Positions 1,465-26,279 of a DNA stretch of 64,000 bases are shown here, one piece after another. The notes below the pieces were generated by a model. It made no database searches. It worked only from the letters and a program-made list of their open reading frames with translations, and was not told the origin of the DNA. This stretch comes from Camelus dromedarius (taxonomy: Eukaryota), in contig NC_087436.1 in NCBI RefSeq assembly GCF_036321535.1, forward strand, positions 69,442,001 to 69,506,000. Direction: 5' to 3'. The position numbers and the translations under genes were made by a program. Positions within the stretch are counted from its first letter, which is position 1; each line of letters starts with the position of its first letter.

Positions 1465-1774
1465 TGTTATGGACTGACCTGTGTTCCTCTAACATTAATT
1501 GATTAAAGTCTGACTGGATTTGAAGATAGTCCTTTAAAGAGGTAATTAAAGTTAAATGAAGTCATAAGAATGGGCCCTAATCCAGTACAACAGATCTTAC
1601 AAGAAGAGGAAGAGACACTAGGAATGTACAAGCCAGAGAGATCAACTTCCAGGGAAACTAGCCTTGACAACACCTTGGTTTTGGACTTTCAGCTTCCAGG
1701 ACAATAAGAAAATTAATTTCTAGTGTTTATGCCCCCTGGTCTGTTAGCTGTAGCAGCCCTGGCAAACTAACGTA
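1465..1774 (+). mobile_element. MaLR LTR (MLT1-like)
   Basis: tgttatggactga...aagttaaatgaagtcataagaatgggccctaatcca...ttggactttcagcttccagga...gcagccctggcaaactaa. Confidence 0.8.
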
Positions 1775-2755: not shown

Positions 2756-3479
2756 CCAATGCTTCACTGTAAAACTGGTCCCAAAACCGAATGTCATGAT
2801 GCTGGAGCCAGAAGTCAAAGACAATGGAAAGCATTACATTTTTTATCCTTTCTGGAAAAGTCATTCTGTCTGTTAGTCCTGCCATGGCAACGGGCACATA
2901 GGAGGGTGGAGCCGGGAGTTTCCCACAGTATTTCTCCATCGTGCTACCCATGAAGAGCCTTAGCGTGTACATGAAAGGGACCTCTAGCAACTCAGCAATC
3001 AGCTCCCCACAGGGTATCATAGGGTCGATAATCATAACGTTGTAGTTGCTTTCCCGGAGCTTCTTCATGAGTGACTGATTGTAGACTACGCTCTCACACA
3101 GAAGTTTATAATCTCCAGTAACTTGAAAAAGAAAATCCTGCAGTTTTTTGGCTGACTGCCAGGCTGACAATGATGGCATGATGTTAACAGATAAGTCTAA
3201 AAAGGCATTTAGTGTATTTATAGCGGTCTCTGTGTCCTGGGACATGGGGATCACCTCGAAGTTCAGCTTGGAAGGCTTTTTGGAGTCAATGATGAAATTT
3301 TGTGGAGGCACCAACACAGTCACTTCGTGGCCTCTTTCTGTGAGTTCCTCCAGAGTAACCTTTAGATTGAGCCAATGACTCATGTCACAGGGCCACACCA
3401 GGACCTTCCCGCAGAATCCACAGCCAGCAAAGCAGAGCTGCAGCAGTAGAATTGCTGAAACCCATTTCTCAGACACCAT
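2756..3479 (-). CDS. UGT2A3: UGT2A3-like first coding exon (signal peptide plus aglycone-binding N-terminal half of a UDP-glucuronosyltransferase)
   Basis: Open frame MVSEKWVSAILLLQLCFAGCGFCGKVLVWPCDMSHWLNLK...FYSEALG. The KVLVWPCDMSHWLN motif is typical of UGT2A3, and the catalytic His (SHW) and Asp (IIDP) are present. 724 nt from ATG 3479 to the phase-1 donor TTGG|GTAAGA at 2756/2755. Orthology to human UGT2A3 rests on similarity only. Confidence 0.9.
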
Positions 3480-3557
3480 GACAGCAATCCCCTCACACAC
3501 TACTCTGCAGAGGTTGACTATGTGCTGGGCACAGAAGCAAAGTGGTACTTCAGATAT

Positions 3558-3599
3558 CTATCAAGTTAAAAATTAACTTCTAGAGTTAGGCAATGACCC
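3558..3599 (-). promoter_or_regulatory. Proximal promoter of the UGT2A3-like exon with HNF1, GATA, C/EBP and nuclear-receptor half-site motifs
   Basis: On the minus strand: GTTAATTTTTAAC (3565-3577, near-consensus HNF1), TGATAG (3558-3563), ATTGCCTAAC (3585-3594, C/EBP-like) and GGGTCA (3594-3599), about 80-120 nt upstream of the ATG. A proximal HNF1 site is typical of liver/gut UGT2 promoters. Confidence 0.6.
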
Positions 3600-6500
3600 T
3601 TACACGCAGAGATGTTTGCCAGTGTTTTTAACTGGGCATAGCAATATACAATATTCGATATTTGTTCAGGAGGAGGTATAAAATATTTATGTATCTTGGA
3701 GGACATAATTGTAACTTTATTTTAGTTTGTTATTGCACCATTATAGTTTGTTTTAAATATGTTAAAGTATAAAACATATTTTTCATTGACAATTTTAAAA
3801 TATGATAGAAGAACCCATTTAAGTAAGTCTAGTAAATGATAATAGGTTTAATAATACTGGACTTAATGATTAGTAATTTGGGGAAACAAAAATGTAGGTC
3901 CTATAATAAGGTTGGTCACATGTTAGTATGTGGATAAGACACACACGTCACATCATAATAGGGGGACTTTATTCAATATTATACAAAGGTAGAGCATTTC
4001 AGGGCCTCAGAAGACGGTGTCACTCCAATGTAAAGAAAATCAGACAAAGCTTCAGAATGGAGGGGACATTTCAGCTAAGTCCAGAAGTAAAGTTTACAAA
4101 AGATGGATTCTGAAGGTGAATGGACAAAAAGGAGAAAAAAATCAGTGATACATAAGTTATGGTCACTTAAGTATACAGTTATTAGTCCAGTGTGTATGGA
4201 GCAGAGGCTAACACAGAGCAGGGCAGAAAAGGAAAATATTGGTTAAAATAGGACACTTTGGAGAGTTTTGAATCTTATACTCTGGGTTCAGTTTTAATCT
4301 TCATGAAAAGGTGTCCATTCAAATTTTTAATTCAGGTTCAGGAAATGATTATTATGTCCTTTAATAAAACTATTTTGGCAACTAAATAGGATTTGAGTTG
4401 CAGAGAAAAAAGAATATGTAAGTGTTAAAAATTAAATATTAGGAAAGCAAGATCTGATGAGAGCCGCTGGGAGAATATAATATTGGTTTGTGACTGGAGG
4501 GCCCAGAAGGAGAGCCTTATGACTGATGAGAAGTGAGAGGTGACCAGTAGCTAACAAGGAAGTGCTCGGCTTATACTTTGAGCAACCAGAGTGTGACAAT
4601 GACTCTAGCAAAATCATGAAACACTAAGGGAGAAGTAGCTATGGGAAGATTTTACGACCAGCAGTATGTACATTAATGACTACGTGTGCCTGTGAATCTC
4701 AAAGGAGGGGTAAAATTTAGAAGTAGAGGTTTTGTGTCCAATCATCCATCCATCTTTCAATCCAATTACAATTATTCTCCAAATCACTTGCTATGTCATA
4801 CCTTCAACAAGCTGTTTAGCACTTAGTATAGGCCAGATTCTATATTATACACAGGGCATAAAGAGACTTGTAAGATACAGTTCCAATCCAAAGGGATTTC
4901 ACAGATTATTACAGAAAATAAACCAGTTAAAAAATACTTATTCCACAAGTATAAGGAAGATGGATCTTAAGAAGGAGAGATGAACTGAAGAGGGGCAAAG
5001 CCCATGAAGGAGGTTGCGTGGTAGAGGAAGGGAATGATGAAATTATGAGTTAGCTAAGTCTTTAAGAGTCTTGCAGGTTGAAAATTATCACTTAGAAGTA
5101 AAAGAGAAAATTAACATATATGTGTTCTACGAAGTGTAACATAGTTATATCAAGGGGTTTATTCAGTTACAAAATTATATTCATTTCAATAATTTGAAAG
5201 AGCCGTATTGAAATTTCAAATCCGTTAAGAGTTTTTCTGTTTTGCTAAAATGAAAACCTAGAGTAGATTTGCTTAAAAGATGACAAGATAAATCCAGGAT
5301 CAAAGATTGAGAGTGGTACTGTGTTGCATAATTAAGCTTTGCATAAGTTCTTACAGTAATTGGTAAAAAGCAGAGTCCAAAAGAGAGTCAGAAAATAGGA
5401 AGATAGGGCAGGAACATGAACCCACTAGAAGAAAACTGAGATAACGTTATAATCTTAGAGGGTGAAAGTTCTTTTATACAGGGTAAATAATCTTGAAGTG
5501 ATTAAAAAAAAGACTGATAAATTTATTCACTATGCCAAAGTTCATGAAATACCGTAAACAGTTTAAACAAAGCTAAAGAGCGAGCAAAGATATATAATAC
5601 AGCTCAGAAATTGATTTCGCAATGTATGTGTTATTAGAGAGCTATTTCTAGCTATTTCGTTATGAGAAAACTAAGAGTTCAGGTTATGAGGAAAGATTTA
5701 TTTGCATAAACTTAAAAGTATGGCATATTTTCACTTATGTCAAACTGAAACATTTAAAATTTTGGATAAAATATAAAATTAGGTCATTTTTTGATTTGGC
5801 AAGAAAGTGAAAAATCAGCAGAATCCCTAGACAAAGTCAAAGCAGGGATTCTGATGTTCAAGCTTGCCGTTTCTTTGGGAAATACACAGTAAAGTGGCAG
5901 GAGAGGGGAGAAGGAAAGTCTCAAGGCTTGTCTAAGACCCTACACCCACATAACATTCACATAATGCTAGATTTCCAAGATCTGGCCTCACTTCTACAAA
6001 TGAGTTCCCTTACAGAGAAGTTTATAGCAAGGAAAACTTCTTGGCTTTGTGTGGATAAAAAAAATCTTCCCTTAGAATTCTTAATAAAGTCAACCTTCAA
6101 ATTTTCTAATTTGATTTTCAGTTCAAATTAGAAAAGCTCTTTGAAGAAACTTTGACCCCAGCTTCAAAGGCTTCCCACAGGTAAAATTCCAGGGTAAATA
6201 TTTTGCAAAGAAACAAGACCTCATGACTGAGAAACAGCGAAAGCAACAGAAATCAGAAATATTAACATAATGATTAGAAATATTATTACTGTTTGAGACA
6301 AAAAGTACAGTTATCTTGTACAATATTTTTAAGGGTATGAAAGAGAAGTCTGAAAATATGAGCAAGGAACAAGGGATTAAAAAGAATAATTGTGAAAATC
6401 TGTTAAAAAAGACAAAGAGAATTACTGGAAATTAAGAATTCAATACATGAAACTCAAAATTCGAGGGCTAGATTGAAGAGTAGATTAAGCACAACTGTAG

Positions 6501-7280
6501 AAATAAACAGTGACGCAAAAGAGAAATCTGAAGATGTTATTTAGAATTACATTCTGAATAAAAAGAAAAAAAACATGGAATAGGAAATATGATAGAATGA
6601 TGAAGAGACATGGAGAATAGACTAAGATGTCTGATTCTAGCTACTGGTTTTGCCTACTTGATGCCTTTTCTCCAAGTCCTTTTTCACTCTTTAAAGCTTG
6701 TGCCTTTTTCATGTAACCCAAACTGCCCAACTAAGCTCTTCATTTATGTTCTTTTAACAAAATTTTCCAATTATCTTAAATCTTTAAATAAATAATAATT
6801 TTAGACATAAAAAGTTGCAAATAAGTATAAAGATTTTTGTATACCCTGCAGTAGTTATTACTATGAGTTTGCCTAATGGTGATTTTCTATTTCCATTACT
6901 CCTTCTGTAAATATTGTTTTTTACTGTAAAAGATTGCAAAAATATGTGCAAACATGTAATTAATGTATTTCACATAGTCTCATAGTATCTCCTGTCAGGA
7001 TACTTGTTAATTACAAAGGGTAAAATCAGGAGAATCTTGGCAGACACCATCTTAACTCAGTGATTAAAACATGGTCACTAGTAATACCTTTCTATCTATA
7101 ATAGGTACCTCTGATACACCACACGGTGAGGGACACAAGATCGCCTCTGCAGTATTCTTATCCACGAAGCCTAATCTCACCTTAATCACCAGAGAACACC
7201 AGGAAAAAAAAAAAAAAGGGATATTCTAAAAAGTAACTAGCCAGTACTCTTCATGAATAAAAAACAGAAAGACTATGAAG

Positions 7281-9920
7281 TATTCTTTGGATAAATACCA
7301 GAAGTGGAATGGCTCAATCATGCAGTAATTCTATTCTTAATTTTTTGATGAATCACCATACTGTCCTTGGTGGCTGCACCAATTTACGTTCCTGCTAACA
7401 GTTGATGAGGATTCCCTTTTCTCTACATCCTCACCAGCACTTGTTATTTCTTCCCTCTTTGATAACAGCCATTCTAACAGGTGTGGGGTGATATCTCGTG
7501 GTTTTGATTTGCATTTGATAGTTAGTAATGTTGAGCATCTTTTCATGTGCCTGTTGGCCATCTGTATGTCTATTCAGCTTCTCTACCCATTTTTTAATTT
7601 GGCTGCTTTTTTGTTGTTACTGAGTTACATGAGTTCTTTATATACATTTTGGATATTAACTCTTTATCAGATATATGATTTGCAAATATCTTTTCCCATT
7701 ATGTAAGTTGTCTTTTCATTTTGTTGGCATTTGCCTTTGCTATACAGAAGCTTTTTAGTTTAATGTAGTCCCACTTGTCTTATTTTTGCTTTTGTTTCCC
7801 TTGCCCGAGGAGACATATCCAGAAAAATATTTTTAATACCTATGCCAAAAAAGTATGTCTATGTTTCCTTCTAGGAGTTTTATAGTATGTTTTACATATA
7901 AGTCTTTAATCCATTTTGAATTGACTTTTGTGTATGATGTGAGATAGTGTTTTAGTTTTATTTTTTTGCATGTAGTTGTCCAGTATTTTAACACTCTTCA
8001 TTGAAGAGAGTATCCTTTCTCCATTGAATGTTCTTTGCTCCTTTGTCAGTAATTAATTGTCTATATGTGTGTGGGTTTATTTCTGGCCTCTCACTTCTGT
8101 TCCATTGATTTATGTATCTGTTTTTCAGCCAATTCCATGCTGTTTTGATTATTTCAGTTTTGTGATATAATTCAAAATCAGGGTACGTGGTACTTCCAGC
8201 TTACTGAATTCTTCAGTGCCAGAATTTCTGTTTGGTTCTTTTTAGAGTTTAAATCTCCCATGTAAAGTATTCTTTCTGTTAATTAATTTAATAATTTAAT
8301 TCCTGAGCTCACTGAATTGCCTTGCCGAATTTTCTTGTAGCTTGTTGAGGTTTTTAACTGCAGCTGTCAGATCTGTGACTTTAAGTTTGGTTTCTGGAGA
8401 ATAGTCATTTTCTTAGTGGTACAATGTTACTGTGGCTCTTCATGATGCTTGATGAGTTGTTCCTCTGCTGGCACATTTGAAATAGCAAACACCTTTTTTC
8501 TTTAAGCAATTTTTTTTAACTTGATTCTAATGATTTGGCTGGTTAGAAATTAAAGGTCTTTCTACTGTTTTCCAGTAGATGACACTATAGCACAAGTTTT
8601 TGGTTTCTCTTACTCTACTATATTTGAGTAGGCATTTTCCACCCTCCACTAACTGTCAGAGCTGTTGCCTGGTGCCCTCCTTGCACTGCTTGTGCCTCTT
8701 GGGTTGCTGGAGCCTTGCTGCTGCTGGTGTCACTGGCTTCTCTGCCTGAGGTTCCAGGATGATGGGCACTTCTGCTGCTGTGTCTGGGGTCTCCTATGTC
8801 AGAGGGGCTTGGTTTGCACAGAGAGAGGGGGAAGATGGGGTGAAGTGGGGGTTACAGGTGCCTCTGCTATGCCTGGGGTTGCTGGGTTCACAGGCACTGC
8901 CACTGAAAGCAGGGGCCGGGGCTGGAGTTGTGGGTTCCTCCATGGCTGGAGGGACAGAGCCACAGGCCCAGCTCCTACTGCCACCCAGTTAGCTGGGGCT
9001 GCAAGTGCCTTGCTGCCAGGAGGCAGGAGTCAGTCCTGTGCACTGGCTTCCCTGCTGCTACCATGTTCTCTGCAGCTGAGTTGCTGGGATCACAGGCATC
9101 ACCTCCACTCTTCCCTTGGTTACACCTCCTCTATGGAGTCCAGTCCGCTCACTTTTAGATGTACAGATGGTACATCTAGGAAGGGCATTAGCTGCAGAAT
9201 CACTGAATAGAAAACTAGACCAGTGGTGGATGCTTGATGGATCACAAACTGAACATGAGTGACAACAAGATGATGTTACTTTTACAGTTAAAAAACAATT
9301 ATAGAATGCATTAAGAAACCCGCCAAAAAAAAAGCCAAAGTTCAAAGAAAACAAAAATACTTACTCAAAAAGATACATACTGATGTTCACAGCAGCATTA
9401 TTTACAATAGCTAAGTTATGGAAGTGACTTAAGTGTCCATCAGCAGATGAATGGATAAAAAAGATGTGGTGTACGTATACAATGAAATATTACTCAAGCA
9501 TAAAAGAGAATGAAAGTCTGCCACTTGCAAGAACGTGAATGGACCTAGAAGATATTATGCTTCAAGAAATGTCAGACAGAGAAAGGCAAATAAATACTCT
9601 AATTTATTACTTATATGTGGAATTTAAAAAAATAAAATGAATGTATCTTCAACAAAACAGGAATAGACTTACAGAGAACAAACTAGTGACTACCAGTGGG
9701 GAGGGGGAAGTGGGTAAGATACGGTTAGAGGATTAAGAGATATAACCTACTATGTATAAAATAAATAAGCAATAAGGATACATTGTACAGCACAGGGAAA
9801 TAAAACCATTATTTTATAACTTTAAATGGGATATCATCTATAAATATTTCGAATCACTGTGTCATAAACCTGAAGCTAATATAATATTATTAATCAACTA
9901 TATTTCAGTAAGAAAAAGAA
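7281..9920 (+). mobile_element. L1 with 5' inversion (antisense ORF2 and 5' parts ~7281-9200, sense 3' end ~9340-9920)
   Basis: Antisense ORF2 C-terminal sequence (MANRHMKRCST ORF). The sense segment resumes at the same L1 position (ccaaagaa) and ends in an A-rich tail. Confidence 0.75.
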
Positions 9921-10499
9921 AAATGGATGTAAATAAAAGGAATGAAAACTGAGTGGTGAGGTTATTCAGTCTGATAAGTATCTGAAAAGGTCTGGAGAGC
10001 AGCTATGTTAGGTAGGGATCCTAGAGGTTGATTGATGTGTTGGTTACAAAGGTGTATACACTTGATAACACAAATCACATTGTGTATGTACCTTTTTAAG
10101 AATCTGAAAACATATATATGTATGTAAAATAAGCAAGTACAAATAGTAAAAGTATAAATAGGTAATGAAAAAATGCATGCAAGCTAAAGGTAAAATTTTG
10201 AGTGTACTTCTTCAGGCAACTTTTATTATATCTAATCTGATTGTTGTTATAAATGTATATATAATTTACTAATGTGTAAATTGCATATTATTGAAACATT
10301 CTACTAGCTCCCTTAGGGGATCAAGGGTGTGTCAGATTATATATCTGACAATACCTGGCAGATTGTCTTACATCACTGAATGTATTGAATTGTATTAAGT
10401 TAAATTGAAATGAGCTGAAGCAGAAGCAGAAAGGTACAGAATAAAGGGCACTGAGGTAGCATTTTTAAGAAAATGTAAATTAGCCCTTAGTAAAAAATA

Positions 10500-11200
10500 A
10501 TAATGAGATAGCACTGCACATCAATAGCATGGTTACAATAAAAAAAAGAACAAAAAGAAAATACTAACTGGTGATGAGAATGGAGAACAGCTGGAAATGG
10601 CTGATGAGATTATTGACTGGCACAAGCCCTTGGAAAACTAGAATTTAGCAGCATCTTCTAAAGCTAAACATATACATGCCCTGCAACTTAGCAATTCCAC
10701 TCTCATGTATACACCCCCTAGTATGGCACACATATATTCACCAAAAGACGTGTACATGAATGTTCATAGCAGTGTTTATCATAAATAGCCAAAACCAAGA
10801 TAGTCTGCATGTCCACCAACAGTAGAATGGATAAGTAAAATGTATATTAATACATTAGACTCCGTATAGCTATGAGAATGAACACACTATACCTGCATGC
10901 AACAACTTGAACAAATATAAACATCATGACATTAAGCAGAAGGTGCAAAATACAGAAGAGCCATAATGCGTGGTTCATTTACACAGTTTAAATCAGGCAA
11001 TTTAATCTGTGGTGTCAGAAGTCAAGAAAGTCGATCCATCAGACAGGAGTTGTAGGGACTGGTATGAAGAACAGTAAGGAGTTATGAGTGTAATAATGTT
11101 TTGCTTTTTGGTCTGGGTACTGGTTTGCATGGATGGGTTTATATCGCAAAACTGCAATGAGCTGTACAATTTATGATTTACGTTTAATCTCAAGAGAAAG
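10500..11200 (+). mobile_element. Old L1M 3' fragment
   Basis: gcaattccactc...gaatgttcatagcag...atgtccaccaacagtagaatggata motifs. Confidence 0.65.
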
Positions 11201-12796
11201 GTTATACAGAATTTTAGAAATCTCACAGCACTGACCGCAGGAAAGTGATATGTAAGGAGGAATTAAAAGCTTACATGAAGACAGATTAACGGAGAGATCC
11301 AAGTTTTCTGGGAAAAGGATGAGAGGTTGGCAATTGGGATTAGAATGGGAGTGGGATACAGAAAAAGAAGCAAATAAACAAAATACTAGATCCAGAAAGG
11401 TAGCCAGGATCAAATGTAAAAATGTTGAGTAGTGCAGCTCAGTTCCAGGAAATTCGGGGGAAGTTAGGGAAAGGTTTAGTTCTAAGGAATCCATCTACAA
11501 TTTAGCAGTCGGGAAAGAGGGACCAACATGGAGCCCATGTGGTACTGACAGGTAAGAGTAGGCTACACTTGCACATAAATTAGTACTGGGCTTTCCTTTT
11601 CTCATCTGCAGTGTGCTGGGAAAGATGGAGACAAACCAGGAAACCAAAAGACACAGGCAAAATGAGGCCATCCAGTTTCCTTACCGAATTAACTATTTTC
11701 ACTGCAACTTTCAAGCCCTTGGTCTTCCTGTAGCTGCAGCAAAGGGTGGTCCCAAATCCTGCCCACATGAGAACTATCCTTTTGCTGTATGTACAGCAGA
11801 TCTCCCTGAGGTTGGGGGAGAGATCCAGCTCAGGGCAATTTGAAGATATCACAGGACAATCAGCCAGGGAAAGATGAATAGAGTCACTCCTGGATATGAG
11901 TAACAATGACTGGCATATACCCAGACACGCTTGTTCCGTTAGGAGTTAGATGCATATTTAAAATGGAATTGATCATCATTTTTATCTGCTTCATCCATAA
12001 ACGATTTTCTCATTGATAAATACAACAGGATTTTTAAACAGTGCAATTAGATATTTCCTTGTTACTTACTTCTGTTTCCTTGAAAACAGATCTGTGTTAT
12101 TTTTTTCTTTACCACAGTTAAATGTTATTTTTCTAATTTATTTTTCTCACAGAAATGAAGAATAGCTATTGAAAAGGGAACACAGAGATATTTGACATGT
12201 TATGAAATCTCTTTTGTTCAAAGATAATATCGAATACAAGGTATCTGCCCTGTTTCAGTATCAGTTTACGGTTAACAGGTGTTGCTAATACTTTAAGAAT
12301 GTAATTGCAAACAAAAAACAGATTGGATTTTACCAGTTCTTCTTGAAAATGTACTTCAATTTGAAATAGAATATTCAAGGTAGTTATTTGTTGTCTAACT
12401 ATGTTTAGTAACATGAGGAGTGTAAAGGTTTTAAGTAAATAAGATATTTAATCTCTTAATAAGTGGGATTTCTGAAACTAGATTATTATTCTGTGAAAAT
12501 GAGAAATCAGGAATATTCTGTTTCACAAAGCCTTTTTCACACATTATATAATTTGTCATGGCTTCCTTTGAGAGAGGAGATTTAGTATATCCCAGAGGTC
12601 ATTTGTTTTCTATAGATATTTACTGACTACTCTATGTACCAGAGCCCTGTGGTAGTATAATTAGGGCATTGTCACTGCAGAGTTCTCATGTAGTTTGGTG
12701 TAAATGACAGTCAACATAAGTATAATCCTTCTCAGTTGCTACAGAATAGCCATACATATACTGTCATATGATCATCCTAGAGAATATAGTGAAATA

Positions 12797-13095
12797 CAAA
12801 ACAGAAACAGACTCACAGACATAATAAACAATCTATGGTTAAGGGGAAAGGGGGTGGGAAGGGATAAATTTGGGAGTTTGAGATTTGCAAAGGTTAACCA
12901 CTATATATAAAAAATAGATTAAAAAAAATTATTCTGTACAGCACAGGGAACCATATCCAATATCTTGTAATAACTTTTAATGAAAAAGAATATGAAAACA
13001 AATATATGTATATATATATATGCATGACTGGGTCACTATGCTGTACACCAGAAATTGACACATTGTAACTGACTATACTTCAATTAAAAAATAGT
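12797..13095 (+). mobile_element. 5'-truncated young L1 3' end with TSD, inserted in a MIR
   Basis: acagaaacagactcacagacata...ctgtacaccagaaattgacacattgtaactgactatacttcaattaaaaaa. TSD AATAYAGTGAAATA at 12783-12796 and 13096-13109. Confidence 0.85.
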
Positions 13096-13759
13096 AATAC
13101 AGTGAAATAATTACCCCATTTTAAAGAGAAGGATGTACTGTGACTCGGAGTTTAAGTTATCTGCCTGAGATCACAGAATTAGCAAGTGGAACTTGAATGC
13201 AGAATCTCTTGTGCTTTGTGAGAACTTTCACTATTTTACTTTTTGCAGCTCCCTATTTAAGAAATATAGACTGCTATGTCATTCAAACCCGCAGTCGTTA
13301 GTGTGTGATACATATATGCTCAGTGATGATTATTATAGCACATATTTCAGATGTCTTGGGGAGTAATCATGTGAATAACATCTACATTTAAAGCTAAGTA
13401 TGTTTTTGAGGCCTATGTAATTTGAAATCCAGGAAAAAATACAGTTACGTTACATGATAAAAAATACAAAACCACTGAATTTTGCCTTCAAAATTCTACC
13501 ATATTTTCAAAGATATGTGCAGATTTTAATTAGCTTCTGTATGTTTCATTTATACGTGTGGTATGTTTAGTATCTTCCCTCTAAATCAGTTCTACAAAGA
13601 TGTTTAAAAGTTTAAGTGATGGAACACTGGTTAAAGAGTATTCCAAAATCAAAAAAAAAAAGAAAAAAAAATTAGCGATCTTACTTGTGGAAGGTTAGAT
13701 TAAGGTCGAGTTGCAATAAATCTTTATTGTAAATCCTTACATAAATCCTGCTTCTATGG

Positions 13760-14130
13760 CTTAACACAGGTCTTTGCACTTGTTCTTATCTACACCTGAA
13801 ATGCTTTTCCTCCAGGGATCCTGTTGGTTCTCACCCTCACTGCCCTCAGGTCTTTGTCTGAATGTCATCCTTTCATTTGGAAACTTCCCTTGCCACTCTA
13901 TTTAAAGGTGTAACCCTACACTCAGAACTATCTGGTCTTATTTTACCATATAGCATATATCACATGCTTAACACTCTCCCCCTATTATATATTTTATATA
14001 TTTATTTTATTCATTTGTCTCCTTTTTACTAGAATGTAAGCTCCATGAGGGTAGATAGAGATTTTGATGGATTTGGCTAATGCTTGCATTCCCAGTGCCT
14101 AAAAAAGAGGGAGGTATTGGGTTCGTATTT
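13760..14130 (+). mobile_element. L2 3' fragment
   Basis: ggtctttgcacttgttc...actagaatgtaagctccatgagggtag...cccagtgcct. Confidence 0.75.
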
Positions 14131-14149
14131 GGTAACTTTCCTACACAAG

Positions 14150-14250
14150 ATGGGAGGAAAATAAGTGAAGGAAGAGAGGGAGGGAGGAAGGAAGGAAAAG
14201 AAACAGAGAGAGGGAGGGAAGGAGGGTTGGAGGAAGGCAGAAAGGTGAGC
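14150..14250. repeat. Purine-rich (GGAA/GGGA) low-complexity tract
   Basis: Seen directly. Confidence 0.8.
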
Positions 14251-15040
14251 AAAAGAACTGTCATACTACCTTTGTAAGAAAGTAACACTGGCAGCATCAA
14301 CTACTAACTCCTGTTGTGAATTAACATCTCTGCTACTACGAATAGATCTAGAGAAAAAATATATTCAGGAGAGAAGAAAATAGAAAAATTAACTAAGGAC
14401 TACTTACGAAAGTGAGAAAGAGAAGCAGTATCAACAACCAACCAGAACTGGCCTTGACAGCTTGCTTTATTTTGTTTGCTCCTCATAAGGAGTCTGCGAG
14501 GCAAGGAAACTTGAGGCTTGCCCACGGTCCCTGAGCAATTAAGTTGGAGGCAGTGCTGGCCCAGGCACCTAAGGGAGCCTAAGGATAGAGAGAGAGACTG
14601 AGAAGCAGAGGAGGGTATACATTCAAGTTTCCAATGCCCAATCTTAAAGCTTCTTCAGACAAAGAAAGAATGAAGAACAAAGAAGGGAAAGTAAACCAGA
14701 TATCACTTTAAAATATTTACCAAGATATTTTTTTCTCAGTGTCATAATTTATCCTAGTAAAGGTGCTTTCATTTATATTTGTATATTGATTGCCACATTG
14801 AAAAGCTATTACCTAAATAGGCAAGATTATTTGCTTTGAGACAAGAGCATATGTATTAACACCACCAGTCTATTTTTTAAAGAATGTGTCCAAAGATAAT
14901 TTTCAAGGACGTTTACAGAGATACAGGTATATTTACTTCAACTTGGCATATGCTCTGGTATGGGGGCATTTTGCTGTACTAACAATTAGAATAAATAAGG
15001 TATCTGGAATCATTAGTGAGAGACTATTTTCGAGACTTAC

Positions 15041-15770
15041 CTAGAACTTTGCTGTAGTATGAATTCCATTCTCCCCAGTAGGATTGAAATATATAGTCTT
15101 GCAGAGGATAAGATATGGTATTTTTAACCCTTTCACTGAAGGTCATCTGGTCAGTGAGCTCGGAAAGGGCTGCCGGTACGTAGGAGGCTGGTGCTGGGAT
15201 TTTCCCACAGTGTCTCTCCACTGTTGAGGCTGGAGAGAACCTCAACGTGTACATAAATGGAATTCCTAATTTCAGAGCAACCAGGTCTCCACAGATTGTT
15301 ACCGGGTCAGCCAGCAACACATCAAAACCACCTTTCTGAAGTCTTGCCATTAACTCGGGGTTGTTTAATACTCCATCACAGATTTGGATATTAATTCGAA
15401 AAAAAGTCTCTAGGAGTTTTCCTAGTTCTTTGTAGAAAGCCCAGAGTGTGAGAGGAGTTGGTCTGTGACGTATCCACAGCATTATCATATGTTCAATTAA
15501 GGAATCGATATTGCTCTTCTTGTAGGAAACAGGTATCACCTCAAAATTCACAGGAGAATCAGGACTGGAGTTGATGAATATGGTAGCTGATGAAGCCAGT
15601 ACAGTCACATTGTGATTTCTTTGATTCAACTCTTCTAAAATGATCTTAATATTTAACCAATGGCTACCATCTGTTGGCCAAATTAGCACGTTCCCAGTTA
15701 GAACAATTTGAGTCAGCATCAAATTAAAAATCAGCAGATGGAAAAACTTCTTAGGCATGGTGATGTCCAT
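15041..15770 (-). CDS. UGT2A2: UGT2A2 variable N-terminal coding exon
   Basis: Open frame (MDIT)MPKKFFHLLIFNLMLTQIVLTGNVLIWPTDGSHWLNIKIILEEL...WGEWNSYYSKVLG closely resembles UGT2A2. Phase-1 donor CTAG|GTAAGT at 15041/15040. Second in-frame ATG at 15758 (718 nt to the donor). Confidence 0.95.
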
Positions 15771-16149
15771 TATGGAAACCCTCCTACTGCAGATCTTTTA
15801 AAATGAAAAGAAACTTTAGAAGTGTATTTAGGTAGATAATTTTTATTTTATTATAAAATAATATTTAATGTGACAGCTACACTCATTCATAGGTCCATTG
15901 GTCTAGAGTTTGAAAGGAAAACAATATAGTTCAAATTCCTAAATGCACTAATATAATTATTTCAGCAAAAGAAATGAAATCTGGCCCTATTTTAAAGAAA
16001 AAGTGCAGGCAGGTTATAAGCCTGATATCTGTGTTCTCTGTGATGCTATGACTTACAAAATGTGTATATCCCAAAATTTTGTTAAATGAAAAATAACAGT
16101 TCTTACTGTCAAAGCTGCTTTGTCAAAATTTGTGGTACTTTCCAGTTGG

Positions 16150-16360
16150 TTGCCTTTATTACAAGGCATTTTTACATACATTGTCTAATTCAGTCCTTTT
16201 CACAATCTTGTGTGGTGAAAGTGATTCACTCCATTTCACGGACAGTGAAACTAATGTTGAATTGCGCACCCAGAAACATATTTGACAAGTAGAACAACTG
16301 GGACTATAATTCTAACCTTATTCCACTCACGGCCAGCTTTTTACAATGCTATGCCTCATC
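16150..16360 (-). mobile_element. MIR
   Basis: ttttacatacattgtctaattcagtccttttcacaatcttgtgtggt...ccatttcacggacagtgaaacta core. Confidence 0.6.
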
Positions 16361-18516
16361 TTTGTAGGTTTTAGGAACTCTGGCTATGCACAATGACCAG
16401 CATTATTATCTTTCCCCATGGCTCATATTTATGAAAAAAAATTTTTAAAGTGTCACTTGGAAGAGTTTGCTCAAATACTTCAGGATGTTTTAGATTAATT
16501 GGGGTATAGCGTAAATTACTACATATTTGATAGAGAGCCCTTTCCTTCTGTGATAAAGCAGATCGATCATTGTCTCCTTGTTACAGGGAAATTTTCAGTT
16601 TCTTTCCCTATGACACCTTTATATACAAATCAAGGAAGTAGGGACCAGCACCCCGGGAACCACATGATTTTTCACTCAGAGTTATTTAATAGCTTAAATT
16701 AGGTGGACACCAGAGTTCAAAAGAGCCAGATTCAAAAACTGTCCTTTTACAAGCTTCATGATGGTGAATTATCTATATCTTCTTAGCCTTAGTTTTCTCA
16801 TGTATAAATGAGAACTAGTGCTAATTTGTTACCTTACCTTGGGGATTAGCAATAATATCTGCAAAGCTGCTTTGCAAACTGCTTAGCTCAGATCAAGAGT
16901 TTAGTAATGTTAGCAGTTAAATTACTTTGCCTCAAGTTTGATCAGTAAATCAGCAGGCTAGCTACAGAATGAGTAGCTAGACATAGATATAATGGTATCT
17001 ATTAGTTGAAGTTCTTAGTGAAGGTCAGTCCAAACGAGGGCAACTGTATAATGATGATATTTTAACAGTTAAAATTATTAGAGGCTGCCATTAAAAAGAG
17101 AAAATAAGAACAAATAAAGAGATTAAAAGGATAGAAGCCAGGAACTGAGAATGGAAATTAAGTAGCAGTTTTTCTCTTCTTACTCTGTTGCTCTTGAATT
17201 GTGCAATTTCAGGCCCTTGAGTAACAAAAGAACCCGGAAGGCAGAGAAAGGGAAAGAGGGGAGAAAGAAGTGATGCTTTTAGAATGATTGTATTTGTATC
17301 CTTCCAAGAGCTAGCCTCAATTTGGTACAGAGGCAGTACCTTTAAAATTAATTAGGTTTTGAAACAAAGCAGTAAACGGACAGTAGGAATCATCTTGACG
17401 GCCATTAAAACAGGCCTAGTGAAGAAATATCTTCGTAAAGAAAACTGTTGTCATCATGACCTCCTTATTAAAAGGTGACAAAACACAACATAAAAGGGAT
17501 AACCAAAGTTTATCTATAAAATACTGGGATCTGTCTAATTATTGAAGTCCTTTTAAAAATAATATAATGATTTAAAAGAAATTACCCACTAGCAATATCT
17601 ATGTTAGCACTTAAAACTTGTCAATATATATTCCAGAATCAAATGCATGTAGGCAGCCCTAAATTACCCTGAATTAAAAAAAAAAAATCATTCAAGAGTT
17701 CAAGGAATCAACTTTCCACTGTTAAGTGATCTCTTCAGGAAAACAACATAATTATCTAATTTAGTAAAGAACAATAGGAGATAATAGAACTAATGAATAG
17801 CTGATGTACATGTCTTTTTGTTTTCAAATTATTCTTGGATGTTAAGGTGTTTAATCCCATTGACATCAGTGTAGATGTCCTTTAGATTTATTCTTTGGTT
17901 TCCTGAAATGTTTCATAATTGCAAATTCAAAAATTATAAAGAGATAGAAAATAAATATTTGGAGACATATGTAGGTATAAACTTAGATTTAAATTTCTAT
18001 CAGTGAAAAAATAATAGCTCCTGCCAAATAAGCCCAATTTCAGGACAAAATGAAGTTCACTAATTTAAAAGGATCACATATTTGTTTGCTTTATGAATTC
18101 ACTAACAGCTATTTTGAATAAGTTTTGCGTAACAGAATTCTGATATTGTTTTCATTCTGGAGACAGTACAAGTCCAGCTTATCCAACTCCATCATTTTGT
18201 ATGTGAGAAAAAAAGATCAAGAGAGGTTTAAATAATCTGAAAGTCACAATACTAGTAATTCATAAGTATTCTTTCTTCTATATTCCACTTTTTAAATCGA
18301 ATACTTGAGATACATTTTATAGTAGTAAAAATTAGAAAACATGACATTTCCTATTGTGAACATTTGATAATGGCATCTTAAACATAACCAAAGAGGTCAG
18401 AAAATAATTTTAAAAACGCATGCCTGTGAAACATCAATATATAAGTACCATGAGTGAAAAATAGATCAGCCATAGAAAATGTGCACGAATTTGAATATTG
18501 TTCTTGTATTTTGAAT

Positions 18517-19056
18517 TGTGAGGGAGGGACAAAACTTTCCCTCTAACTTTTCTAGGTTTTTCCAACTTGTCTAAGAATTAAACTGACATGAGACAGACGA
18601 ACAGGAGAAAAACTAAATTTAATGATGTACGGGGTTCCATAAGACTATGAGGCCCAAGGACAGGTTGGGCAGTTGAGGCTTATATGCCATCTGAGAGAAG
18701 GAGAAGTGAGTAGGGTTGGGGACTTCGAAGGGGAGGAAGGCAATTCGCACAGAGGTGGAGAAACAGTATTTGGTAAACAAGTGTTTTCGGTGCCACACAG
18801 AGACAATGGGACCAGGAGTGGACGTTGGCCTCCAGGCCCTGTTGAGTTTCCATTGACAGTAGCCCATGTTCTTTGTAGGTATCTGTGGTGAGAGGGCTCT
18901 TCCTGGACCAGGGCTTTTATCTAAAATATTTTAGGCAGTTAAGGGAGGGGTAAAAAGAAAGACTTCCAGAACCTTTTGATTCTAAAAAAACAATCAGCCC
19001 CAAATAATCCTCAAGCCAAAGACACAGTTTGAGGTGGCAAGTTTTGTCCCCCTACA
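18517..19056 (-). mobile_element. Solo LTR, ERV1 class
   Basis: TG...CA termini with a 4-bp TSD, GAAT (18513-18516 and 19057-19060). Confidence 0.75.
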
Positions 19057-19679
19057 GAATCAAGTGATCCTTTCTGTTCTCTGTTTATTTTAAAAGAGAG
19101 GGCTCCAAATAGTAATAAAATGGATATAAAGTTCTCAGAATAAAATTTAATAAATTTTTGTATTTAACGCCTGCTAGAGAATGTTTAGTCATCTGTATAA
19201 AATTAAATTAGTATTAAAGTTTCTTAAAATACGCATAATGCTATTAGTTTAAATTGAAAAATCCTCAAAACAATATTTTTGTACAGGAGTTTTTCTTATT
19301 ATACTTTTCCTCTGAAGACACGTCCTGCCTTGAAGGTTTACTCTTCCCGTGCGCTCCGTGAATAATGCGCTGAACGGCTGGGACGGAATTGTGCTGATTC
19401 ATTTCTTATTGTCTCTCAGGTCTGGACGTGGTTCCAGTGGCGCAAAAGCCTGGAAATCAATCTTCATATTGTTTTAGGAACCTGAGTAATCAAGTCGTTA
19501 GTAACCTTATAGTTTTAGCCTTACATTAATGCTTACATTTCATTTGAGTTCTTTGATTGGCATTTATTTAATTCCTTTGAAATTTTAAATTTAGGTGCGC
19601 TCTCTTCTTTTTCTCTTTGTTTTACTCTATATAAACTGAGTATCTTCCAAAGCTTTCTTTTTCGCCCCAGGACTGCCAT

Positions 19680-19850
19680 CAAATGCTTCACCATTTCCTT
19701 AATTGTAACCTCAGGCAAGTTACTAGCCTCCTGATTACAAAGTGGGGAAGAATGACGATGTGTATTTCCTGTAGTTGTGAGGACAGTGTGAAACAATGCA
19801 TGTAAATTCTTCCCAACGGCATTTGTGCTCAATGAATGTTAGCTATACAT
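19680..19850 (+). mobile_element. MIR
   Basis: gtaacctcaggcaagttactagcctc...gttgtgaggacagtgtgaaacaatgcatgtaaa...gtgctcaatgaatgttagcta. Confidence 0.7.
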
Positions 19851-22695
19851 GCTATTGTGGGGAGAGAATCTGACTTTAAAAATGACCAGTTTAAACAGAT
19901 TTCATCACCTAGTTCCACCTCCTCTCTTCCACCCCTCACACAATGGCTCCCCGGGGGCACCTGAGCTTTGGTGCGGATGTGCCGAAACAGGGACAAGTCC
20001 CTCCACGAGCGTCAGTCATGCTCAGTCTCCGGACATATCACAAGCGATCTATTACTAACAATGTATTCAGTACCAAAGTTTACAAGTGATTTAAGAAATA
20101 GACAAATATAAAATTCAAGCTTATATGCATAAAGATTGAGCTTCATTCCCTTCCACTGAGAGGGAACAAAGAACCAGTGAAAGCTCTCCCTGGATATTGT
20201 GCAGGTCACCCTGCAAATTCCGTCTCGGATGTCATGCCCATGGCTGTTGTCCGGCTCACGGGTAATTGTGGAAAAGGGAATGCTACCGGTGGTGATTTGG
20301 AAAATCCTAACCAACCAAGATTAACTTAAATTAAAAAATAGAAACAGAAAGGAAGGAATGAGAGAGGGAAGCAAAGAAAAAGCTAGGAAGAGAAGAGAAA
20401 AAAAAAAAAAAAAAAGAAAGAAAGAAAGGAAAAGAAAGATCCAAACAAAAATGTATTGCCCTTCAAAGGAAAGACTCCAATACATTTTTTATCTTCTTTC
20501 AAATGAACAGTGAAAATCAAGCACTAATGGAGAGATAGATATACACTCAAATTTGTTTCATTTCTAACACGTTATTTTACATTAATTACTTGTGCTCAGC
20601 GAGTACCTAGTTCATGTAAAGAGCTGAATATTATGGTCATTTTTTTTTTCTTTTTTGGAGGTCTGCTGTTTTTCCTACTGAATTTAACATATTTTCAAGA
20701 TATGTTGTTATAGATGGCATTAGTTTTTAGAAATTAATTTATTAATTTAGAAGTTGTTCACCTAATTATTTGTATATAATAATACATTAGATATTTACAT
20801 AAATCTAATATATAAAGCTTACTCACAACAAAACCCATTTGTTTTTATAATGGCCACAGGATAAAACTGTCTGGTAGCAATAGATAATATTTATGGTTTA
20901 TAAATATTTTTATTGGCATTAAAATGCTACATCATTATTTTCTTAAATGTTTCCTCAATTTTGATGGTATTTTTGTTAATATAAACATAAAAATTGAATT
21001 TGCCTGGTTCAAATTTAAACAAATATTATTTGAATTCTGCAGAAGCCTTTTCTTATTTTCAGTTGAAGTGAGGCTCTTAGGACCAGAAAGCTATGCTCAG
21101 GCAAATCGCCCCAGGCAACAGTCACCTGGAGTCTTACGCCTTAAGGAAGAGGAAACTACCTAGTGATAACATGGCCCAATTAAACACCATTTGGCAAATT
21201 AAAATAGGTGAGAAATAGAACAACAGATTTCAAAAACTAAGTACATTGAAAGGAAGAAGAAAAGTACCAAAGAAAGTTTAAACTAAAAATATTCTGAATA
21301 ACTAATGGATTCACATCTGAAATTTTAAAAGGAGAGAAAAACTGGTCTACATACTAGTTTTCTCTTCACAAGTTCATTGCAAGGATTAAGAGATATATTA
21401 TATGTGAAGCACTTATGGTGTCCAGTGCAAAAGAGATCAACAAATATTACCTGCTATTACTTAATGATATTCGTGAGTTCAAACCAAATACCCATGACCT
21501 GAAATAAAAGAAGTAATTTCCACATCATAATATCCAATTCCTAGAAATTAGCAGAGATTAAGGACTCACTCTGTGGTTCTTATAGCATTCCTTGAAGAAA
21601 AATAATCTCCCAGAAAATTGTCCTCTATTTATTTACTCAGGTGTGACAATTTGAGACCTGAGGCGATATTGATTTGTTGCAATGACTTTGATTAGAGCGT
21701 TCAAGCTAAAGTGAAATGTAAATTCAAATTACAAGTTGGAAATAAGTTCTTTTTACAAGTCAGGTCCATTCATCACCCTCATTTATCATTTCATTTGTGC
21801 AAAGTCTTGCACAAAAATAAATTACTCTGAGTTGTCAGTATTTCTACTTCTTACCTGATCTTTTGAATATGTGTGCTCATATCCCTGGGCATCAATAATA
21901 TTGTGTTTTAGTAAAACAAACTTAAATAGTCATTCTAAGTCAGAAGATTGTAATTTGATTAGAAACGTGATATTATCAGAATCAGAGTGTAAGAATGTTT
22001 TTAGAAATCTTCATTACATTCCCATGAACAAATTGTTAGGAAAGATTATTCTCATGTGTTAAGACTAGGAAAATAGTGTGGTTTTATTACCAGCATTAAC
22101 TTACAAGTAAAATAGAATGAAATGTGATTCTGAGACTGCCAGCATGGGGAAGGTTTACCTAAGGGTAATTTCACCAATTTAATAAAGAGCATTGTAATCC
22201 TGACAATTATTATTCCAAGGTTGAGAACAAGTAGTTGATAAAAATATAAGTGATGAGATAAAAATGTGGACATATATTGTGACCAAGGAAGTCTCCATAC
22301 ACATTCCTCTAGTTTATTAACTTGGATGCTGCGTGTATTCAGATGTCACTTAGTTAACAACGTGCATGAGGAGACTAAAGAGTTTTTGAAGATCTTGACA
22401 GCTTCATTGCTTCATAAAGTTGCCATTTCTTTATCTTCTTTATTTTTAAGGTCCAGCTTTAGTCCTCCAATGTTGACTGTTCACTTTTATCTTCATAGGG
22501 TAGTTTATAATCATCATAGTAGCTATGCATATTCTCTCTTAATGTCAGAACAGCTGGGCCTTTGTTTACATTCCAGGCGATAAATATCTATTTTTGAATT
22601 AGGGGGAAACTATTGAACATATCCAGAGGAGATGATGCACCAACTGTAACTTACATCCCTCTTAACACTCCTCTTTAATAAATCCACTCATAGTG

Positions 22696-23637
22696 TCAAT
22701 TGATTTGTAACAAAGGAGCCAAGTAGAAAGTAGAAAAAAGACAGTCTCTTCAATAAATGGTGTTGGGAAAACTGGACACCCACATGGGAAAGAAGGAAAC
22801 TGAACCACTATCTTATACTTTATAGAAAAATTAACTCAGATTGGATTAAAGACTTTTATTCTCACTGAAGTGAAACTACAAAACTCCTAGAAGAAAATAC
22901 AGGCAGTAAGTTCCTTGACACAGATCTTGGCAGTGATTTTTTGGATTTGACACCCAAAAGCAAAGGCAACAAAAGCAAAAATAAACAAGTGGGACTACAT
23001 CAAATTAAAAAGCCTCTGCACAACAAAGGAAACCATCAACAAAATAAAAAGACAGCCTACCAAAAGGGAAAAAAGTATTTACAAATCATATATCTGATAA
23101 GGGGCTAATATCCAAAATATATATAAAAATTTATCCAACCTAGTAGAAAAAAAAAAAAAAGGCTAAAAATGGGCAGAGGATCTGAATTGACATTTTTCCA
23201 AAGAAAACATACAAATGGCCAACAGATACATGAAAAGATGCTCAACAACACTAACCATCAAGGAAATGCAAATCAAAAACACAATATCAACTCACACAAG
23301 TTAGGATGGCTGTTATAAAAAAAACTAAAAGATAAATGTTGGTGAGGCTATGGAGAAAAGGGAATCCTCACACACTGTTGTTGGGAATATAAATTGGTAC
23401 AGCCACTAAGGAAAACAATATGGAGGCTACTGAAAAAATAAAAAATAGAACTACCATATGATCCAGAAATTCCAATTCTGAATATTTATCCAAAGAAAAT
23501 GAAAACCAACTTGGAAAGATATCTATACCCCCATGTTCATTGCAGCATTATTTACAATAGTCACATACGGTAGTACATTTTCTTTATTTATCCAACGATG
23601 GACGCTTAGATTGTTTCCATGGCTTGTGCGTGCGCAC

Positions 23638-23686
<49 letters not shown>

Positions 23687-24205
23687 GAAATATTATTTAA
23701 TGATAACAAAGGAGGAAATCCTATCATTTGGAACAACATGGTTGGAGCTTGAGGACATGCCAAGTAAAATAAGTCAGACAGAAAGACAAATACTATACGA
23801 TCTCACTTATAAGTGGAACCTTAAAACAAAACAAAACAAAACCTTAACTCGTATATACAAAGAACAGACTGATGGTTGCCAGAGGTGAGGGGTAGAGAAT
23901 CCGTGAAATGTGTGAAGGTGGTCAAAACGTGCAAACTTGCAGTTATTAAATAAATAAGTCCTGGGGATCTAATGTACAGCATGGTGACTGTAGTTACTGA
24001 TAAACTGTATTGCATTTTTGAAGGTTGCTAAAAGGGCAGAGCTTTAAATTCTTATTAAAGAAAAGTAAATTGGAACTATGTGTGGTGACAGATGCTACCC
24101 AGACTTATTGTGGTCATCATGTAGCAGTATATACAAATACCAAGTCATTGTATTGTACACCCAAAACTAATCAATGTTATTTGTCAGTTATATCACAAAA
24201 ATAAA
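22696..24205 (+). mobile_element. L1 (L1MA-like) ORF2 end and 3'UTR
   Basis: acagtctcttcaataaatggtgttgggaaaactgg...aacaagtgggactacatcaaattaaaaagc...3'UTR. Contains an internal micro-inversion and (CA)n. Confidence 0.9.
23642..23684. repeat. (CA)n microsatellite
   Basis: Seen directly. Confidence 0.95.
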
Positions 24206-24559
24206 CCATTTTAATCTCTTCCTCATCCCCCCTTTAACACTCCTCACCAGTTATCAGCTTTTATTAATTTTATCTGATAAACTCTAATTGAATGGTTATT
24301 AGCTCCTAGACACTGTCTTAAAATCCTTTTATATGTTAACTAATTTAGTTCTTTCAGTAGTCCTATTAGAGATGGGATAAATAAATGCAGGTGCAAAGAA
24401 ACTTAATTACACCTCCATGGTCACACACTCATAACTGGGAACCAGTTATCAACAGCCCGCTCTCCTAGTTGTTACTTTGTGGTCTCATCTCATTATTTTT
24501 CTCTGTTTATAAGCTACTTCACTAGTATGTGCTCCTATCACATCTTTCCAGGCGTGATA

Positions 24560-25150
24560 CAGTAGCCTACAGTCTAACAACCCTCCACTCTAGGTCCACA
24601 TCTGTCCAGGTATTTTAAATAAAAGGTGATCCAGTCATAATACATCCCTTTCAACATTCCCCAGTTCCTTATTAGATAAAAACCAAGATGCTTAGCATGA
24701 CATGCAAGAGACTTTGTGAATACTTATTGAATAAATTCATTCTTGCAATTTTGACATCTCTAGCATTCTTTCCCGTGCCTCCCGACTTTATACTTTGACC
24801 TTCCTAAATACTGAGACTGCTATTTTAAGACTCCACAACATGGAACATACTGTTTTCCTCCCCACACTTAGTTTGTAGGAAAATTCATATTCACTGTTTA
24901 AAAATTTCCTTGTGTATCACCTTAACTCTTTTAAGTTTTTCGGAATACCACTCTCTCATCTCACGTGCCTGTTTCCTTTATACTACCTCTGTTCTTTATA
25001 CATATTTCCATTACCCACATTAGTCATACTGTAAATATTCCTTTTCATGTCTGACTTCTCTGCTTGACTGCAAATTTCTTGAAGCCAGGAGCTTTATCTT
25101 AGTCTTTGTTGTAACTTCCCTGTTGAAGGGAGTGCCTAGTAAATAGTAGG
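24560..25150 (+). mobile_element. L2 remnant
   Basis: cttgactgcaaatttcttgaagccaggagc...gtgcctagtaaatagtagg L2 3' motif. Confidence 0.55.
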
Positions 25151-25561
25151 ACATCTATGTGCAATAATCATATCCATAAACATATATGGCTTTAAACACA
25201 CACAGATGTCTATAATAATAGGCTTGCAGAAAGCTGAATCTCTTCCAGCTTTCCCCACAGCCCACGCACTGAAGTTTCCAGGCAATTTCTATTTTCAATG
25301 TAATATCTAAATGGGAATTTAGTCCTATTTTTAAGTTTAGGTATTTGTCACCATATGTTTGTTATCCATAAAAGAATTTAGGTGGTATCTTCAAGTCCAT
25401 AAAATTAGAAAACAACACACTGTATTTCCAAAGGATAGTGTCTTTTATCATCTTTCCTGCTATCAAATGATATTAATCAACATGTAGGATTGAAGAATAA
25501 TAGCCATAGGGAAGTAAAGAAGTGTTTGTTCAAATTCAAATAATAAAAAAATGTAACATAC

Positions 25562-26279
25562 CCAAAGCTTTACTGTAGTAGGAATCCCATGATTTCCAAA
25601 GAGTATTAAACATGTAGTCCTGTAGATGGTAGGAAATGAAATTTCTTATTCTGTCACTGAAAGACATCTGGTCAGTGAGTTCTGATAAAATAGCAGGAAC
25701 ATAGGAAGGTGGGTATGGTACCTTCCCACAGTGTTTTTCCACTGTTGAGGCTGGAGAAAACCTCAAAGAGTATATGAATGGAATTCCCAGTTTTAAAGCT
25801 ATTATATCACCACAAGGAAATACTGGATCTGATACCAAGACCTCAAATTTGCTCTTCTTCATCTTTTCCATTAGCTTTTGGTTTTTGAGAACACCGTCAC
25901 AGATTTCTCTAGACACCATGTGGAAGTCTTTGATGACTGTGGCCATCTTCTGATAGAATCTCCAGATGGTTAACGGAGATGGTCTATTTTCCATCCATGT
26001 CAAAACAAAGTCCTTGATCACTCCTTCTATTCTTTCTTTGCCAAAGGGCACATTATATATTTCAAATATCAGAGATGGGTGAGAGGTCGGTGTGATGAAA
26101 AGTGCACCAGAAGCAACTAGGACAGTCACATTATGCTCTTTCCTAATCAGCTCATCTATAATTATCTTAACATTTAGCCAATGACTACCTTCCATTGGCC
26201 AAATCAGGACATTCCCACCAAGAGTGGTTCCTAGAAGACTTATCTGAAGAGACAACAGTAGAATGTTCTTGTTCAACAT
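25562..26279 (-). CDS. UGT2A1: UGT2A1 (olfactory UGT) variable N-terminal coding exon
   Basis: Open frame MLNKNILLLSLQISLLGTTLGGNVLIWPMEGSHWLNVKIIIDEL...WKSWDSYYSKALG. 718 nt; phase-1 donor TTGG|GTATGT at 25562/25561. An upstream acceptor (CTAAT, pyrimidine tract, AAGCAG) lies at ~26329-26362. Confidence 0.95.

Follow-up and report, generated by a model that had tools for sequence, protein, structure and literature searches.

In the UGT2A1-UGT2A2 locus of human, mouse and rat, variable first exons are described as being spliced to five constant exons (passages of PMC1885805 and PMC6209164). The same design is described in passages on the UGT1A locus and on the UGT2 cassettes of birds, marsupials and platypus (bioRxiv 10.1101/2021.08.20.457063; PMC6209164), and those on the three UGT2 cassettes make no mention of a 2A3-type cassette exon. 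For eutherians, sections of the same preprint report UGT2A genes of the variable-plus-constant type together with some stand-alone genes, with a UGT2A count of at most four in most species, and place the origin of stand-alone UGT2 genes in this group (bioRxiv 10.1101/2021.08.20.457063), while the relevant passage of a carnivore study has 2A1/2 sharing exons and lists 2A3 separately (PMC9658400). Here we describe the UDP-glucuronosyltransferase (UGT) 2A locus of the dromedary, Camelus dromedarius, in a stretch of 64,000 nucleotides from contig NC_087436.1 (G000:C1:69442001-69506000; position 1 is 69442001; hereafter the window). We conclude, with a probability of roughly 0.88, that this is a complex locus in which three variable first exons stand before one set of exons 2-6, and that it likely yields three UGTs; the estimate includes the history proposed below.

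The camel locus resembles the human, mouse and rat locus, as portrayed in the passages cited, in that its 2A1 and 2A2 exons are orthologous and in the same order, with sulfotransferase exons upstream. In contrast to that locus, it has a third exon, of the 2A3 type, placed after 2A2 and before exon 2, and the camel genome yielded no stand-alone UGT2A3 gene. Unlike UGT1A, it has only three variable exons, and it has the six-exon UGT2 structure rather than five exons. Loci of this kind are known, and the layout is already in RefSeq for the dromedary. The RefSeq models called 'UGT2A3 isoform X1-X4' in cattle, deer, dog, cats, pangolin, sengi, colugo and rabbit show the same constant-region sharing and the same structure; they come from automated annotation and are named after the human gene, although their exon does not group with human UGT2A3. 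Within the portions consulted of the literature outside subscription journals there is no explicit account of three-way exon sharing or of two 2A3 lineages, although the supplementary figures of 10.1101/2021.08.20.457063 may show the layout.

Three variable first exons and a single constant set

All three first exons (Table 1) have an intact open frame, end at the first G of a glycine codon and are followed directly by a GT donor. Each matches positions 1-212/213 of the Pfam family UDPGT (PF00201) with E values of about 1e-54 to 1e-55, which excludes a chance match. The 2A1 and 2A2 exons are each 92% identical to an N-terminal domain of human UGT2A1 isoform 5 (P0205), the former to the first and the latter to the second, and the 2A3-type exon is 100% identical across 241 residues to Bactrian camel protein P0002; the matching camelid proteins are named UGT2A3. 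Identities among the three exons are low (126/239 between 2A1 and 2A2, 86/238 between 2A1 and the 2A3-type exon, and 93/240 between 2A2 and the 2A3-type exon), and the exons are therefore old paralogues. The histidine and aspartate listed for each exon, kept in all three, sit at the positions of what we take to be the catalytic pair. A PDB sequence search with the 2A3-type exon returned no match, and sensitive blastn of the cassette and its vicinity detected no additional, decayed first exons.

The internal acceptor of the 2A2 exon is the junction used in models of 693-738 residues with two N-terminal domains, which exist for many mammals and to which human UGT2A1 isoform 5 belongs, and the junction SKAL/DGSHW is present in most 2A1+2A2 models. 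The 2A3-type exon lacks an AG at the corresponding position.

The DNA examined comprised the window, 300 kb to its left and 50 kb to its right, or 414 kb in all, with two 200-nt gaps that both lie outside the 2A locus. The sole 2A-type set of exons 2-6 within it lies at 69434660-69425262, 7-17 kb left of the window; in the window and the 50 kb to its right, tblastn and word-7 blastn gave no credible exon 2-6 sequence (the best stray match had an E value of at least 0.09). A genome-wide search with human UGT2A3 as query, in which the first look scored 76 candidates, revealed a single 2A3-type first exon (62% identical to human UGT2A3; next best, 44%) and neither a second 2A-type constant set nor a stand-alone UGT2A3. 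In the cluster this search found seven copies of exon 6 against ten first exons. The remaining six constant sets each lie behind, and belong to, one of four 2C/2E-like or two 2B-like first exons, and the last first exon of the cluster is a broken 2B-like one; these subfamily labels are ones we presume from sequence likeness. Protein-level tblastn of six stand-alone-type proteins against G000:C1:69396400-69556000 disclosed nothing new that could be a stand-alone 2A3 remnant, although a decayed copy could escape such a search.

When joined in silico to exons 2-6, the first exons give open proteins of 528 (2A1), 532 (2A2) and 530 residues (2A3-type) with no internal stop. The 2A3-type product matches positions 1-498/499 of PF00201 and is identical to RefSeq XP_010980673.2, dromedary 'UGT2A3 isoform X3/X1', so the layout is already annotated. 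The six private exons of a human-type stand-alone UGT2A3 are not the structure seen here, as the lone constant set would serve 2A1 and 2A2 as well. We note that the constant region has Thr335 (end of exon 3, 69431894 region) and Ile504 (exon 6), where the models of Bactrian camel, wild camel and alpaca have Lys and Thr, respectively. Lys at position 335 is also found in the other mammalian proteins compared, and the two residues would affect all three isoforms.

On the model of UGT1A and human UGT2A1/2A2 (PMC1885805), each first exon would have a promoter of its own and is likely to be spliced to the common exon 2. The choice of promoter would then set the acceptor-binding domain, and the three enzymes would differ in this domain while having an identical C-terminal half that binds the UDP-sugar and is anchored in the membrane.

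A preliminary description of this DNA had recognized three intact, in-phase tandem exons on one strand with G|GT ends, which the open frames, donors and PF00201 matches bear out, and had found no exons 2-6 between them or in positions 1-2755, as tblastn and word-7 blastn confirm. It had regarded a set of exons 2-6 between 3480 and 15040, or two downstream sets with the 2A3-like exon spliced to a different one than 2A1/2A2, as arguments against sharing; one set was found, and none between the first exons. Its suspicion that the layout may already be annotated in some laurasiatherians was correct, given the RefSeq 'UGT2A3' models that include XP_010980673.2. As for its proposal that the constant exons are shared, the single set and the lack of a stand-alone UGT2A3 in the genome agree with it, while the splicing itself is predicted. 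Its boundary for the third exon, 3480, is corrected here to 3479, where the ATG starts.

Table 1. Features of the camel UGT2A locus (window positions unless prefixed G000:C1)
Feature	Position	Strand	Details
UGT2A1 variable first exon	25562..26279	-	718 nt; phase-1 donor GTATGT; His33, Asp151; signal peptide and N-terminal acceptor-binding domain
UGT2A2 variable first exon	15041..15770	-	730 nt from first ATG; phase-1 donor GTAAGT; His37, Asp155
Internal AG acceptor inside 2A2 exon	15670..15672	-	AG at 15672-15671; exon re-entry at 15670; 630 nt left; frame kept
UGT2A3-type variable first exon, in-cassette lineage	2756..3479	-	724 nt; phase-1 donor GTAAGA; His35, Asp152
Common intron, part in window	1..2755	-	10,095 nt from third donor to exon 2
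Exon 2	G000:C1:69434660-69434512	-	149 nt; AG acceptor, GT donor
Exon 3	G000:C1:69432025-69431894	-	132 nt; AG acceptor, GT donor
Exon 4	G000:C1:69430371-69430284	-	88 nt; AG acceptor, GT donor
Exon 5	G000:C1:69429830-69429611	-	220 nt; AG acceptor, GT donor
Exon 6	G000:C1 from 69425540	-	AG acceptor
HNF1-like palindrome, candidate liver/gut promoter element	3565..3577	.	1 mismatch to presumed consensus

Constant-region sharing among placental mammals

For comparison, 85 2A3-type and 44 2A1/2A2-type mammalian proteins, the top matches of three homologue searches and one cluster look-up, were labelled by hand, and the two types were compared in 35 same-species pairs. The constant region differs at 0-1 positions in 27 of the 35 pairs, which come from alpaca, ruminants, hippo, donkey, carnivores, pangolin, sengi, colugo and rabbit. 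A guinea-pig cassette model, with a constant region identical at 289/289 positions, is one more case of sharing beyond these 27 pairs. In guinea pig and two Myotis species, models join the 2A1 exon to the 2A3-type exon, which places the latter inside the complex in these animals. Intact counterparts of the third exon, with 68-79% identity, occur in ruminants, hippo, equids, carnivores, pangolin and bats. Because the constant region is common to both types in Laurasiatheria, Euarchontoglires and Afrotheria, the three-exon cassette is likely to be the ancestral state of placental mammals.

Two further readings of individual records were rejected. The guinea-pig cDNA named UGT2A3 is not a cassette isoform, having 21/289 differences in the constant region and 32/200 in the N-terminal part from the cassette model. 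A hybrid constant region in pig was likewise discarded, as the RefSeq pig model is nearer the camel 2A set in all five exons; the odd pig row P0041 looks like a mixed model.

Probable paralogues under the name UGT2A3

The camel third exon belongs to the same 2A3-type family of N-terminal domains as human UGT2A3 (NP_079019.3), to which it is 63% identical, and other stand-alone 2A3 genes. The stand-alone genes, which occur in primates, rabbit, colugo, tree shrew, bats and rhinoceros, differ in that each carries its own exons 2-6 (as same-species comparisons show in the case of rhinoceros, rabbit, lemurs and marmoset, and the literature in that of human), and they form a separate clade without the camel exon. 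A human pseudogene, UGT2A3P7, also appears in the literature (PMC13673223, PMC10932237).

First-exon trees were built with FastTree (52 ingroup rows), IQ-TREE under LG+G4 (34 rows) and a mixture model (24 rows), from rows chosen by hand to cover the orders, with near-duplicates dropped. These trees, of 241 columns, are without a reliable root, and the FastTree root inside the rodents was flagged for long branches and not used. The stand-alone clade, made up of human, tarsier, lemur, tree-shrew b, colugo b, rabbit b, rhinoceros and bat b proteins, has a support of 100 (SH-like; 15/52 ingroup rows) with FastTree, 100/99 with IQ-TREE and 99 under the mixture model, and both the camel 2A3-type exon and mouse Ugt2a3 fall outside it. 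Rows with a shared constant region in this clade number 0/15, and rows with a private constant region 4/6. Internally the clade repeats the species split, with a laurasiatherian (100/94) and a euarchontogliran (96/89) part in the IQ-TREE analysis. Topologies that force all laurasiatherian rows together (p-AU 0.00068), that place mouse and rat with the euarchontogliran stand-alone genes (p-AU 8.5e-05; a group named after the first tree) or that give the stand-alone genes an independent origin in each superorder were all rejected. Mouse and rat group with the exons of other rodents (93/89), and the guinea-pig cDNA has the cassette exon of its own species as sister (100/100), placements that suggest separate later escapes in rodents.

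In these sequence comparisons the camel exon and human UGT2A3 stand apart whatever the root, and the camel third exon is likely a sister copy, rather than the direct counterpart, of the human gene. A different scenario accepts the same cassette but takes the third exon as the true orthologue of human UGT2A3, which primates would have moved out, and the stand-alone clade as an artefact of convergence or gene conversion. The exon is indeed the best match in the genome to human UGT2A3 (63% to human exon 1), databases use the same name for both, and the trees rest on 241 columns only; however, rabbit, colugo, tree shrew and several bats have both types, and the repeated species split and the rejection of independent superorder origins speak against it, so that we consider this scenario unlikely, if still worth some weight.

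We instead favor the view, which appears reasonably probable from the trees, that the cassette exon, human UGT2A3 and mouse Ugt2a3 are paralogues under one name. A duplication before the split of Laurasiatheria and Euarchontoglires would have copied the third exon together with the constant exons, giving rise to a stand-alone gene. Humans would have kept this stand-alone copy as UGT2A3 and camels the cassette exon only, while rabbit, colugo, tree shrew and several bats would have kept both. The third exon may have escaped once before the boreoeutherian split, producing human UGT2A3, and independently in guinea pig and in muroid rodents, with xenarthrans as a possible further case. In its full form, which we also judge to have better than even chances, this history begins from an ancestral three-exon locus and includes several third-exon escapes, loss of the ancestral cassette exon in humans, paralogy among the 'UGT2A3' of human, of mouse and of dog, cattle and camel, and expression of a hepatic/intestinal 2A enzyme from the cassette, under the label 'UGT2A1', in most livestock and carnivores.

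UGT2A3 has bile-acid glucuronidation activity. Because the name probably covers paralogues, the bile-acid and gut profile of the human enzyme cannot simply be transferred to the camel exon. The preliminary label of '2A3-type (liver/gut, bile-acid)' is accordingly retained in its first half, whereas the profile, human UGT2A3 lying apart, is an extrapolation from a paralogue. The idea from the same source that the three-exon layout is ancestral gained support from the 27/35 sharing pairs, and of the separate exon-1 and exon-2-6 trees that it proposed, the former recover a well-supported stand-alone clade and the latter is weakly resolved.

Use of the exons, surroundings and implications

It is very improbable that the constant exons belong to a stand-alone UGT2A3 and that the 2A1 and 2A2 exons use another set or are orphans. 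Of the three first exons it is the 2A3-type one that lies closest to these constant exons, and splicing of 2A1/2A2 to exon 2 in camel is predicted; but no other 2A-type set emerged from the 414 kb or the genome-wide search, both exons are intact and as similar to human as noted above, and the camel constant region is 90% identical to that of human 2A1/2A2 and, in the constant-region tree, is no member of the stand-alone clade. A silent or decaying third exon, left over in the 2A1/2A2 intron, is likewise very improbable: its expression in camel is predicted, but against this reading stand its open frame, canonical donor and presumed catalytic residues His35 and Asp152, its intact counterparts in ruminants, hippo, equids, carnivores, pangolin and bats, and the cattle cDNA-type record and RNA-Seq runs with most of its words described next.

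The curated cattle RefSeq protein NP_001092414.1 (also AAI46248.1), named 'UGT2A1', has a 2A3-type first exon and a constant region 288/289 identical to that of the cattle 2A1 model; from the accession type, we take it to be of cDNA origin. Expression of 'UGT2A1' in cattle liver is reported (PMC8949217, PMC3465249), in favor of the present reading. Three RNA-Seq runs from one study, two of them labelled liver and the set as a whole liver or mammal, contain 0.73 of the sampled words of window 2700-3600 (3/24 rows listed), which is about the share of that interval taken up by the 2A3-type exon; six runs of unstated kind contain 1.00. An HNF1-like palindrome lies 98 nt upstream of the 2A3-type ATG and is the only match in the window, the other first exons being without one. 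HNF1 may drive expression of the 2A3-type exon in liver and gut, and 2A1 and 2A2 may be expressed in nasal tissue in camel. In passages on human tissues, UGT2A1 and 2A2 are below 5 transcripts per million in liver, intestine and kidney (PMC10659769), and UGT2A3 is expressed in intestine, liver and kidney (bioRxiv 10.1101/2021.08.20.457063; PMC10659769).

Several points weigh against the three-exon cassette and its history. In the text and supplement legends seen of Li and Wu (2007), two variable plus five constant exons are the conserved mammalian state, and dog appears in those legends (PMC1885805). Eight of the 35 same-species pairs differ by 4-48 residues: one, involving a second red-fox model, at 4 positions, and seven at 21-48 (rhinoceros, tamandua, the guinea-pig cDNA, the second rabbit gene, two lemurs and marmoset). 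The cross-species models are mostly automated and show layout rather than splicing, and the camel junctions are predicted. The constant-region tree is poorly resolved (6/37 branches starred, bootstrap unsettled) and, unlike the first-exon tree, has a stand-alone clade that also takes in the xenarthran stand-alone genes and a pig model of doubtful quality (95/88); because of this disagreement, the date and number of the duplications are uncertain, and the events may be older or blurred by conversion. For the HNF1-like site, whose consensus is one of six motifs scanned and is given as we presume it to be, 0.55 matches are expected by chance window-wide and 45/100 shuffles reach one match, so the site is a hint only, suggestive in position. 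The RNA-Seq shares measure words in common rather than aligned reads, the kind of run is a guess, and rows with small shares were uncounted. Finally, the passages on cattle liver leave the first exon of the 'UGT2A1' measured unspecified (PMC8949217, PMC3465249), and a human liver expression quantitative trait locus for UGT2A1 is mentioned in part of another source (PMC13673223).

The surroundings of the locus contain further UGT and sulfotransferase sequences. The last exons of a cytosolic sulfotransferase, presumed from its motifs, lie at window 60831 and 63697 on the minus strand and continue to G000:C1:69511855; by synteny in the literature, this should be SULT1B1. A second sulfotransferase, near G000:C1:69546017 on the minus strand, has an in-frame TGA just before its KTHLP motif, while the motif contexts of its other exons look intact. 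We take it to be possibly a SULT1D1-like pseudogene or null allele. Overlapping open reading frames at window 32890-34193 read like what are presumably LINE-1 ORF2 fragments. The interval from the 2A constant exons to the neighboring gene contains a lone, inverted UGT2 exon-2 fragment with a stop codon (plus strand, G000:C1:69408287-69408436); the HPLLPN motif of this fragment resembles 2B-like genes. In G000:C1:69275000-69396400 lie four UGT2C/2E-like genes of six exons each, arranged in tandem at a spacing of about 34 kb, and three of them are nearly identical in the aligned exons, indicating a recent expansion. A 2B-like first exon at G000:C1:69268168-69268881 has stop codons, and the following gene begins before any constant exons that could belong to it, and a 200-nt assembly gap is present at G000:C1:69256056. 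Elsewhere in the genome, a second cluster has five UGT first-exon matches with near-identical scores at a spacing of about 5.5 kb (G000:C4:92701055-92723769), likely a recent tandem amplification; we take this cluster to be of UGT1A type.

Finally, the picture given in reviews, of two shared-exon UGT2A genes and a separate UGT2A3, fits human and mouse but appears unfit for most of the placental mammals sampled. An implication of the three-exon cassette, if it is correct, is that gene-level counts for 'UGT2A1' in the liver of cattle, camel and dog likely represent the 2A3-type isoform rather than the olfactory enzyme, and that variants in exons 2-6 would hit three enzymes together. It would also follow that the 'UGT2A3' of dog, mouse and human should not be assumed to be orthologous in comparisons of drug metabolism. 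The locus would provide a clean example of how cassette exons become stand-alone genes, a route that has been proposed for UGT2B.

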